From Escherichia coli (GTDB taxonomy: Bacteria; Pseudomonadota; Gammaproteobacteria; Enterobacterales; Enterobacteriaceae): a DNA stretch of 42,324 nt. Numbering within the stretch: position 1 is the stretch's first letter; each line of letters begins with the position of its first letter. Shown piece after piece: positions 39,554 to 42,324 of the stretch. The position numbers are program-made. The DNA lies in NCBI RefSeq assembly GCF_003334785.1, contig NZ_QOWV01000024.1; one strand, given 5' to 3'.

Positions 39554-42324
39554 TGTATTCAGGGCAAGATTACGAAAGCCCGCTCCCCGCAAGGACTGAC
39601 GCCAGATAGTTTCTGTCCATGGCTGCTTTTCGCATCTTACGTCTTAACCCTGCCTTGAATACCTTATCATTCGTCAAAATATTAATAGCAATGTGCCGTA
39701 TCCCTGAAAATAATTCTGCTGCATTTCCTCTTCTTATTTTGCAGTCGTCTTCATTCATTACCACGTCCAGACGCCAGTGCAGCTTATTCTCCACGTGCCA
39801 GTGATTTCGGATCGCTGTGGCGAATTTCTCAGCGGTTAAATCAGCAGAACTGATATAATATCTGACCGTCATTTCTGGCTCTTTCTTTTGTTCTGCTATT
39901 ATGGACCGAAAGGAGACTGCCACGCATAATTTCTTCAGCCCTTTCCATTCAAACGTGAAATCAATAAGTTCATCAGGGACATCGCAAACAATATGAAGAC
40001 GGATTTCTTCTCTGCCGTGACTCTTTTCACTCATTGCGTAACTGTCATGCTCTGGATTATTTAATTCTTTCAGCGGAAATTTTTCCTCAAAGGCTTTATT
40101 TAGCCGCCCCTGGTTTCCTTTTACCGCGAATAAATAATCACCTCCCTGTTTTTGTATCTTCTCTGCAATATCTTTCTGGCAACCCATCGCATCAGTTGTG
40201 ATGATTTTTCCTTTAATATCCAGCATGTTAAGAAGTTCTGGGATAGCTGTAATCTCATTAGATTTCTCATCCGTCTTGATCTGTCCGATGACCAGACTGT
40301 GCATTGTTGAGAACGCACTAATGACATGAATCGCTCCCCTGCGGCGACTCTTGTCATAAGAGTGCCGGAGCGTTTTTCCATCAATTGCAATGACGTCTTT
40401 ATCATCTGAAGAATGGCAGTCACGCATCCAGTTAATAAAGCACTCGTGAAATTTTGCAGGACTGATACAGGATACAACTCTGGCAATGGTATCGTGAACA
40501 GGAATACCATTTTCAAAATCACCATATTGCTTCAAAAAATCGGGATGTGTTTCCCCAAAATCCTCTATATCTTCCCAGCCTTCTGCACCAGAAATAACGG
40601 CACAAATAGTCAACAGTAGAATATCTGACAATTTATGTTCCACTTTCCAGGCTTGTCTGTAATCGGGGATAATAGAAATATGTTCCATCAATTTTTTAAG
40701 TTCCATTTTGTTCTCCTTAATTATGTAAGAAGTATTTGATCATGTATAAGCAATAAAAAACAGCTTCAGGTAATAAGGAATATCTCAATTTTTAAACATA
40801 AAATGCGAATTATTTAGTGCAAAAAGTGAACTTTTGATGATCTTTCCCTGGCCGTTGACTCGATTGCCGTAGCTCGAACGCAAGCACTCTTATCATTCAA
40901 TGCCATATTGTTCAAAATATTAAAAACATTATCTTCGCATTTTTTGCAAATTTATATTTGCCCGAGTATAAATGCTCCGATATCTCTACGGATATAATTT
41001 TTGTCAGTGCAGAATTCAATTGCCAATCTAACAGCGTCTTGCCCCCCTCTTAACTGTAATACTCTGGCAGATGAAATCCTTTTCAAGGAATTGCGATCAT
41101 CAAGTAAGCGAAATAATTCATCATCATTTAGTTTCTTACATTTATTATATAAACCATACTCTTTACTTGCCTTTCTTTTCTGGTATGTATTTGACATTGC
41201 AGGAACCTCCATAAAGGCTATCTTTTTCTATCGTTTGACTGTCTGGAGTCCTCCACCTACTCTGCCATCAGCGCACACGATGTTTGATTATCCTTACATA
41301 CTTATTTTCCGTGGCCAAAATTCAGAATTCTCCCATCATTTTTGCCTATTTCTATAATAAAAACCCCACCAGCAATTTGGTCTGAGTGAATGGTACCTTC
41401 AACAACCCAACTTGTTGTTAACTCAGTGATTTCGTATGGTTTTTCTTCTTCTGCGGCATCCTGTCCATAACGATTCTTAACATATATCTCAGCTAATTCC
41501 AATGCTATAGCTTTATTTTTAACCAAATTTCTAACGGTATATTTACCTTCACTTTCATACTTGCGCATTATTTTAATATTATTATTACACTGCGCCCATG
41601 TGTTGTATGTAAAAACAAACAAAGATACAATGACACAGTTCCTAAATAATATTTTTTTACATATTACCATGAACTCTGCAGACATTAGGTAATCCTTTTC
41701 TGTTTGTTATTTCCTTCCCGTGGTTATCTATTGCTTTAAAATTACCACTGGGCGTACCTAAATAAAATGACTTGATATTGTTATCTTTACTTTTAACTAT
41801 TTTCTCATCTTTACCTGAAAATATTTCGTCCCAATATTCTCCATGACTATCTGCACCATGAGTATGATAAGCTGATACTTTCTCAGTACCATTAGGGCAA
41901 GGGCTATTGAATGGATATGATCCTTTTCTTTCTCCTCGGTTAGGTGCTGTTGAGAAATATCTGCCACTATTATCCTTACATATTAAACCAGCGAACTCTT
42001 TATCTTCGCAAATAGATTGGCTATTTATTTTATTTAAGGCGCCATATGCGGTGCTATCTATAGAATCAAATTTATCTGGACCTATCATAGCGGATAGTGT
42101 GCCGCAAAGACCATTAGTACATGCCCCCGATTTTGCATCCTCCCACATAGATAAACCCAGGGGGTCGATGTCTGATATCGGATTCAATTGATATCCATAC
42201 AGGTTCCATCCCCCCTTCAGTCCAATCGGATCCTGAGTGATATATCGCCCCTGCAGCGGGTCATAATAGCGGTGGCGGTTGTAATACAGGCCGGACTCCT
42301 CATCATACTGCTGCCCCGGCAGGC

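Follow-up and report, generated by a model that had tools for sequence, protein, structure and literature searches.

The 3′ end of rhsB and the adjacent gene yhhH, considered here as a toxin–immunity pair, lie at one end of a 42,324-nucleotide (nt) stretch of the Escherichia coli contig NZ_QOWV01000024.1 (assembly GCF_003334785.1); this whole stretch is referred to as the window. Translation of the window places both genes on the minus strand, as are all other window features described below. The C-terminal end of the conserved RhsB core (42152..42324) is part of an open reading frame (ORF) that runs past the window edge at 42324, and it closes in a demarcation motif of the PxxxxDPxGL type (42152-42181) directly before a variable C-terminal domain, the arrangement that marks an Rhs tip. 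The tip comprises 164 amino acids (aa; SMWEDAK...RVHGNM; 41660..42151) and is followed by the stop codon of the Rhs ORF (41657-41659). YhhH (127 aa) is encoded at 41302..41685; its ATG (41685-41683) lies inside the Rhs coding sequence, such that the two ORFs overlap by 29 nt (41657-41685), and a Shine–Dalgarno sequence (AAGGA, 41693..41697, by direct reading) is also located within the Rhs coding sequence, 7 nt upstream of the ATG. The original prediction, made from the sequence alone, described a 164-aa Rhs toxin tip at 41660-42151 after a demarcating motif, with an overlapping immunity gene that starts 29 nt before the Rhs stop codon; translation agrees exactly with this layout, and family matches and linkage agree with the functional assignment.

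The locus is the E. coli rhsB–yhhH locus, which is already catalogued, and both protein families were described in 2012 (Zhang, de Souza, Anantharaman, Iyer, Aravind, 2012; PMC3482391). Positions 40900-42324 are 99.9% identical to an E. coli record (L001) in which the genes are annotated as rhsB and yhhH, and in which the rhsB ORF encodes 1411 aa (starting MSGKPAARQGD...), including an N-terminal PAAR domain and an Rhs shell upstream of the tip. The 1.4-kb stretch containing the tip and yhhH is present at ≥95% identity in thousands of E. coli genomes, and thus does not represent chance ORFs; it is found with ≥80% coverage in 2687 of 5426 complete E. coli genomes (about half), and at ≥99% identity in 2081 records. 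The guanine plus cytosine (GC) content is 0.37 in the tip and 0.33 in yhhH, vs. 0.54-0.56 in the Rhs core end and neighboring genes. Such a break in composition is classic for an Rhs core extension, and the tip and yhhH constitute an AT-rich cassette joined to the core. A scan for promoters and terminators around yhhH gave nothing beyond chance level.

Family, catalytic site and cysteines of the RhsB tip

The tip, which was initially thought not to be assignable to a known toxin family, matches Pfam DUF4329 (PF14220; E = 2.1e-39, model positions 2-114 of 116). DUF4329 corresponds to Tox-JAB-2, a JAB domain of deaminase-like fold that is marked by E, H[ST]H, S, and D residues conserved across the family, is borne on Rhs and other polymorphic toxins and is paired with the immunity family Imm-NTF2-2 (Zhang et al., 2012; PMC3482391). 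The RhsB tip is a DUF4329/Tox-JAB-2 domain with the JAB/MPN (deaminase-like) fold and an intact JAMM zinc site (E...HxH...S..D; catalytic span 41807..41998), composed of Glu52 (41996-41998), His96-Thr-His98 (41858-41866), Ser112 (41816-41818), and Asp115 (41807-41809), with every codon confirmed in the window. Across 64 diverse aligned sequences (A1), E52, H96, H98, and S112 are invariant, and T97, D115, G55, N43, S46, P86, T133, and P134 are ≥90% conserved. The full E-H-H-S-D set is present in 106 of the 145 sequences of a query-anchored alignment, the remainder being mostly fragments.

An exhaustive search of representative sequences yielded 730 relatives of the tip at E ≤0.001, including the remote relatives; word-indexed homolog searches gave almost solely E. 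coli and Salmonella fragments. The top structural matches of the tip are peptidases, namely deubiquitinases and ubiquitin-like protein (Ubl) isopeptidases (JAMM1, BRCC36, AfJAMM, Cap3, and AMSH). By sequence search against PDB chains, nothing meaningful was recovered for the tip (an internalin match at E = 0.56) and there was no match for YhhH; neither protein has a family in NCBIfam. In PHROGs there was only a weak match (E = 0.004), of unknown function; phage genomes searched by tblastn yielded no match, and Foldseek against viral models gave only weak matches that are either unnamed or RadC/JAB-like.

Six cysteines are present in the tip (residues 11, 16, 48, 58, 85, and 158), rather than the seven counted originally, although they remain dense, at 3.7 per 100 aa vs. 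0.72 in the Rhs core. Cys58 and Cys85 covary: counted at the level of 50%-identity clusters, 53 sequences have both cysteines, 2 have Cys58 only, 17 have Cys85 only, and 55 lack both (p = 6e-18, without correction for phylogeny), and at least this one pair behaves as a covarying unit across the aligned sequences. Cys11/16 and Cys48/158 are confined to an enterobacterial subgroup, and show paired gain or loss in a few informative sequences, which are too few for statistics. A structural Cys4 zinc site formed by Cys11/16/48/158 was considered and judged less likely, given that there are homologs that have 11/16 without 48/158, and the reverse; because these cysteines are lost and gained pairwise, disulfides fit better than a Cys4 metal site.

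YhhH, related immunity proteins and neighboring genes

YhhH matches Imm-NTF2-2 (PF15631, “NTF2 fold immunity protein”; E = 3.4e-26), with the full model (1-68) aligned to residues 60-127, and Y73, Y84, and W93 are invariant in an alignment of the YhhH family (A3). The predicted structure is an NTF2/cystatin-like alpha+beta cone, in a model of medium confidence (pLDDT, predicted local distance difference test, 74.8 overall). There is very little doubt that RhsB and YhhH represent an Rhs tip and immunity pair of the DUF4329 and Imm-NTF2-2 families.

The N-terminus of YhhH is hydrophobic, with a Kyte–Doolittle value of 2.75 for residues 17-26; KK stands before this stretch and NTWA|QC after it. 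Heuristic scoring predicts a Sec signal peptide at residues 1-31 (41593..41685), with a KK n-region, the core VIVSLFVF, a c-region NTWA, and cleavage before Gln32. In the AlphaFold model this leader is a low-confidence helix detached from the domain. Among YhhH homologs of 65-90% identity, W30 and A31 are invariant, and the residues before them vary while staying hydrophobic; in those that are 65-72% identical, the leader is mostly changed except for the basic pair, the hydrophobic core and the G/T-W-A site, which are kept, and the mature domain is near-invariant. In one YhhH variant (P0090), a hydrophobic leader of unrelated sequence is joined to the protein at this same WAQC site. YhhH thus very probably carries an export signal, as judged from these sequence features; the hydrophobic stretch had been noted originally as a possible signal peptide, and both the hydropathy and the signals of all 14 proteins compared below (YhhH included) bear this out.

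The order of a DUF4329 tip followed by an Imm-NTF2-2 gene also occurs at loci L002, L003, L008, L009, and L014. E. coli proteins served to define the Imm-NTF2-2 family, which is listed as “E. coli only” in the table of Zhang et al. (2012; PMC3482391). Contrary to this table, Imm-NTF2-2 is not restricted to E. coli: in Massilia and in unrelated metagenomes, such proteins are encoded after DUF4329 tips, and in every case they have a signal peptide. The leaders include those of YbbC (MKYSSIFSMLSFFILFAC, with a lipobox), Enterobacter P0288 (...IYLFITSESA), P0299 (MKTDRRIIIAFVLLLISS...), the immunity proteins of L003 (MKRILMGIYLLFPICSVA), L008 (MRRSAQLLVSLLLVLGQSVAPAVSSA), and L009 (MRNAVAMLALLGLGGLSVLRATSNA), and the two Imm-NTF2-2 proteins encoded after the Rhs-DUF4329 gene of Massilia L014 (MKFFKYLLIALQLFLVTATWVSA and MKSIKSAACIVITVCFSIANSYA). 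Genes that do not encode NTF2-type proteins, located 3′ of DUF4329 tips on very different carriers, also start with a signal or lipobox: LLSLIWSC in L004, MRRLFKVKKISIAIFIITLLF in L005 (when an upstream ATG is used), and MKTKLLIFVLLLASISC in L007. The downstream lipoproteins of L004 and L007 have no match in Pfam.

Altogether, a Sec or lipoprotein signal was recognized in 14 of 14 downstream immunity candidates, which span enterobacteria, Massilia, and metagenomes, by a crude heuristic and by eye, and the leader sequences are unrelated to each other. The 14 proteins are YhhH and 13 others (YbbC, Salmonella and Enterobacter homologs, P0299, those of L003, L004, L005, L007, L008, and L009, and two from Massilia L014). 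As a control, 4 of 30 other genes of the same 42-kb region pass the heuristic (Fisher p = 3e-8 vs. 14/14); of these four, HdeA and HdeB are correct, YhiI has a membrane anchor, and ArsR is a false positive.

In L003 (2833-3132), L005 (9523-9909), and L007 (7141-7614), a classic leader is regained when an ATG further upstream in the same frame is used. Gene callers often start these immunity ORFs 3′ of the signal peptide, and therefore their database versions under-report export signals. L014 (Massilia eurypsychrophila; 1157-4139) carries, in this order, a full Rhs-DUF4329 gene, a first Imm-NTF2-2 gene, an orphaned piece of a tip (3349-3579), and another Imm-NTF2-2 gene. This orphan toxin/immunity array resembles those of enterobacterial Rhs loci, and signal peptides are present on both immunity proteins. 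L006 (10597-11076) and L010 (24161 onward) encode very large DUF4329 proteins (3366 and 7386 aa, respectively), and the DUF4329 domain of L010 is internal (residues 6085-6193) rather than C-terminal. A profile search of genome contigs with a narrower alignment recovered five loci. Two short contigs from metagenome-assembled genomes (MAGs) labeled as Lachnospiraceae (L011) and Flavobacterium psychrophilum (L012) encode a tip 99% identical to that of E. coli rhsB; they almost certainly represent E. coli contamination in metagenome bins, and not true hosts. An Alistipes contig (L013) encodes a 52%-identical tip, a level equal to that of the E. coli tip of P0149/YbbC type, and is possibly also E. 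coli-type DNA in a MAG.

Downstream of yhhH in the window lie the remains of a YibA-like HEAT-repeat “putative lyase” gene (40847-41212), in which an ORF (40952-41212) matches positions 1-81 of 285 in NF007244 (E = 3.5e-31), and then yhhI (39570-40706), which encodes the transposase of the ISAs1-like insertion sequence (IS) ISEc1 (H-repeat). The same order of yhhH, broken HEAT-repeat gene and yhhI is found in matching E. coli chromosomes, and the remnant is annotated in a matching genome as a pseudogene with an internal stop. The remnant has the appearance of a displaced orphan immunity-type fragment from another Rhs system, severed beside the IS element. With yhhI, the AT-rich Rhs accessory region comes to its end (GC 0.42, vs. 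0.56 in rbbA-yhhJ).

Site and mode of action of the toxin

Periplasm-acting type VI secretion system (T6SS) effectors, such as Tae, Tge, and Tle, have immunity proteins with signal peptides, and cytoplasm-acting effectors do not. By this rule, Tox-JAB-2 is placed in the periplasmic class: since YhhH and its relatives all have export signals, the predicted toxin is probably periplasmic, and not an RNase as the literature assumes. The combination of an exported immunity protein and a covarying Cys58/85 pair likewise favors action in the periplasm or on the envelope. No transmembrane segment by which the tip might cross the inner membrane is present in full-length RhsB (maximum 19-residue hydropathy 0.98). 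For the sister family Tox-JAB-1, Zhang et al. (2012; PMC3482391) report that the immunity protein, Imm65, is of the lipoprotein type. A Hellea sp. MAG (L015, 2360-2935) encodes a DUF4329 protein of 191 aa that stands alone (Pfam E = 4e-32); its catalytic residues are all intact, its N-terminus is itself signal- or lipobox-like, and there is no Rhs carrier and no obvious immunity gene. The gene lies in a housekeeping context (mltG [YceG, E = 7e-84], gmk, the DUF4329 gene, rsmA, pdxA), and may be a non-toxin periplasmic relative within the family. Overall, we consider it likely that the RhsB tip acts at an extracytoplasmic site. The original prediction of a toxin of the periplasm or envelope with an exported immunity protein gains comparative support from the 14/14 signals and the Cys58/85 covariation; the unassignable family and the count of seven cysteines do not stand.

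A different interpretation is found in the literature, in which the tip would be a cytoplasm-acting nuclease (RNase or DNase), with the hydrophobic N-terminus of YhhH being either incidental or a membrane anchor on the cytoplasmic face. Zhang et al. (2012; PMC3482391) conjectured that JAB domains of toxins have nuclease activity, and the “RNase” label has been repeated in later in silico surveys of effectors in enterohaemorrhagic E. coli (EHEC), Shiga toxin-producing E. coli (STEC), and Salmonella. However, the conjecture rests on analogy to RadC, and a literature search found no experimental support for it. It leaves unexplained why all 14 immunity candidates have cleavable Sec signals or lipoboxes of classic type, features that locate the domain outside the cytoplasm, and it is also at odds with the covarying cysteine pair in the tip, the predicted export of the stand-alone DUF4329 homolog, and the lack of a transmembrane or translocation segment in RhsB. 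In addition, the nearest structural matches (JAMM1, BRCC36, AfJAMM, Cap3, and AMSH) are peptidases. We regard the nuclease interpretation as unlikely. The original prediction had named a match to a cytoplasmic nuclease or deaminase family as a finding that would count against it; the deaminase-like fold and the nuclease conjecture formally touch on this point, but the evidence gathered here argues against a nuclease.

Several points weigh against a periplasmic toxin. Most characterized Rhs tips act in the cytoplasm. Many members of the DUF4329 family are themselves Sec-exported, such that a periplasmic immunity protein could in part reflect protection against a toxin in transit. No cysteine is present in the domain of 47 of 145 family members (about a third), and hence disulfides are not essential. 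The signal calls were made by a home-made heuristic that is imperfect (ArsR is a false positive; MdtE and Slp were missed) and is no substitute for SignalP. No recognizable immunity gene is present at the sampled loci L006 and L010, and the literature search returned no experimental report on any Tox-JAB-2/DUF4329 member.

It is similarly unlikely that the cassette is a silent relic, i.e., an intact-looking but unused pair that is kept by Rhs linkage in strains that cannot deliver it (such as K-12-like strains without a T6SS). The neighborhood is decayed, with the truncated HEAT-repeat gene and the ISEc1 transposase gene directly downstream, there is no promoter- or terminator-like excess around yhhH, and many database entries are fragments or IS-disrupted versions. 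Nevertheless, both ORFs are intact in the window and every catalytic residue is present, the 1.4-kb stretch is conserved at ≥99% identity in 2081 records and occurs in about half of complete E. coli genomes, and the near-invariance of the YhhH domain in homologs of 65-72% identity indicates purifying selection. Moreover, the relic interpretation concerns activity in one strain rather than the function of the proteins.

Very improbable is a role against eukaryotic cells, for example that of a deubiquitinase-like JAMM isopeptidase deployed against a host or predator, for which YhhH would not be a classical immunity protein: despite the deubiquitinases and Ubl isopeptidases among the top structural matches, the giant-virus and fungal homologs noted by Zhang et al. 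(2012; PMC3482391) and the weak structural matches to viral models, the translationally overlapping toxin–immunity order recurs across taxa (L002, L003, L008, L009, L014), which is the signature of interbacterial polymorphic toxins, the residues of the ubiquitin-tail tunnel reportedly lack conservation (Zhang et al., 2012; PMC3482391), and an exported inhibitor would be senseless for a target in the host cytosol.

For a periplasm-acting tip, the following mechanism is proposed. The PAAR-Rhs protein would be fired by the T6SS, and the tip freed from the Rhs shell through autoproteolysis near DPLGL. In the periplasm of the recipient the tip would fold oxidatively, with up to three disulfides (58-85, and probably 11-16 and 48-158), and would act as a zinc-dependent hydrolase on an envelope substrate, the likeliest being a peptide, isopeptide or amide bond in peptidoglycan or in a protein–peptidoglycan link. 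YhhH would be exported by means of its Sec signal peptide, and its small cystatin/NTF2-like domain would bind and block the toxin in the periplasm, thereby sparing sibling cells. On balance, we favor this explanation as a whole, that is, a periplasm-acting zinc hydrolase paired with an exported inhibitor. The simplest assumption, that the tip has the chemistry of other JAMM enzymes (cleavage of a peptide or isopeptide bond), inclines us slightly toward a peptidase or amidase. Peptidoglycan stem peptides or the link between Lpp and meso-diaminopimelate (mDAP) are attractive targets, given that both Gram-negative and Gram-positive lineages carry the family (Zhang et al., 2012; PMC3482391), but this is speculation, and we regard peptidoglycan or an Lpp linkage as a rather doubtful substrate. 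Somewhat less doubtful, but still tentative, is the generalization that Tox-JAB-2 domains, including the C-terminal tip of RhsB (RhsB-CT), may be the first extracytoplasmic JAMM/MPN+ metallohydrolases: periplasm-acting Rhs/T6SS effectors that would cut a peptide or isopeptide bond of the envelope (e.g., a stem peptide, a cross-link, or Lpp Lys-mDAP), be activated by disulfide formation, and be blocked by an exported cystatin/PepSY-like inhibitor.

The gene pair itself is not new; rhsB and yhhH are annotated in every E. coli K-12-type genome, and the value of the analysis is narrower than the discovery of a new element. Relative to published work, what appears to be new is the consistent presence of predicted export signals on Imm-NTF2-2 proteins and their positional equivalents, together with what these would imply for action in the periplasm, neither of which was found in the literature search. 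Surveys of E. coli and Salmonella genomes refer to Tox-JAB-2 as an RNase, and the comparative evidence points to the periplasm instead. If this is correct, a JAMM zinc hydrolase would be a new enzymatic class among the few T6SS effectors that target the envelope, JAB domains would gain an extracytoplasmic role, and the “RNase” label that has been copied through T6SS effector surveys would be overturned and annotations corrected.

Comparison with known systems

The RhsB tip and YhhH are direct members of the Tox-JAB-2/Imm-NTF2-2 system (Zhang et al., 2012; PMC3482391), with no structural difference: they share the hidden Markov model (HMM) matches, the E/H[ST]H/S/D signature, the position of the tip after the Rhs repeats, and an immunity gene immediately downstream. 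What differs is the interpretation, which was a nuclease in the 2012 paper, whereas here the signal peptides point to the periplasm. The RhsD-YbbC-type pair, the second one of these two families, has the same architecture, with a tip (P0149) 52% identical to that of RhsB, and with YbbC about 49% identical to YhhH; the partner toxin of YbbC, represented by P0149, we take to be RhsD of K-12. The signal of YbbC is of the lipoprotein type (ILFAC), whereas the leader of YhhH is of the signal peptidase I type. Tox-JAB-1/Imm65 of Bacteroidetes Rhs toxins represents a sister JAB clade, in which the signal peptide and lipobox of Imm65 parallel the exported YhhH (PMC3482391); it differs in sequence family, motif (NxxxE), and immunity fold, as compared by means of the paper only.

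The JAMM/MPN+ metallo-isopeptidases (AfJAMM, Pyrococcus furiosus JAMM1, Rpn11, AMSH, BRCC36, Cap3 of the cyclic-oligonucleotide-based antiphage signaling system [CBASS], and BilC) have 10-20% sequence identity to the tip. These known enzymes are cytoplasmic and cleave ubiquitin-like tails, whereas the tip is part of a secreted toxin and includes an additional, cysteine-containing helical segment at its N-terminus. The residues that line the ubiquitin-tail tunnel are reported not to be conserved in toxin JAB clades (Zhang et al., 2012; PMC3482391), and we do not classify the tip as a ubiquitin-type isopeptidase. For YhhH, there is a likeness to PepSY/cystatin-like inhibitors and to the colicin M immunity protein Cmi (5-21% identity), which concerns the fold only, and this fold is common. 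Among T6SS systems, the Tae/Tai amidases, Tge/Tgi and Tle/Tli are periplasm-acting pairs, and Serratia has DsbA-dependent effectors. The RhsB tip and YhhH share with these the export signal of the immunity protein, the oxidizable cysteines of the effector, and the absence of a translocation segment. Tae, Tge, and Tle have unrelated folds (papain-like, lysozyme-like, and lipase) and are mostly small stand-alone cargo, and the periplasmic action of RhsB is predicted by comparison.

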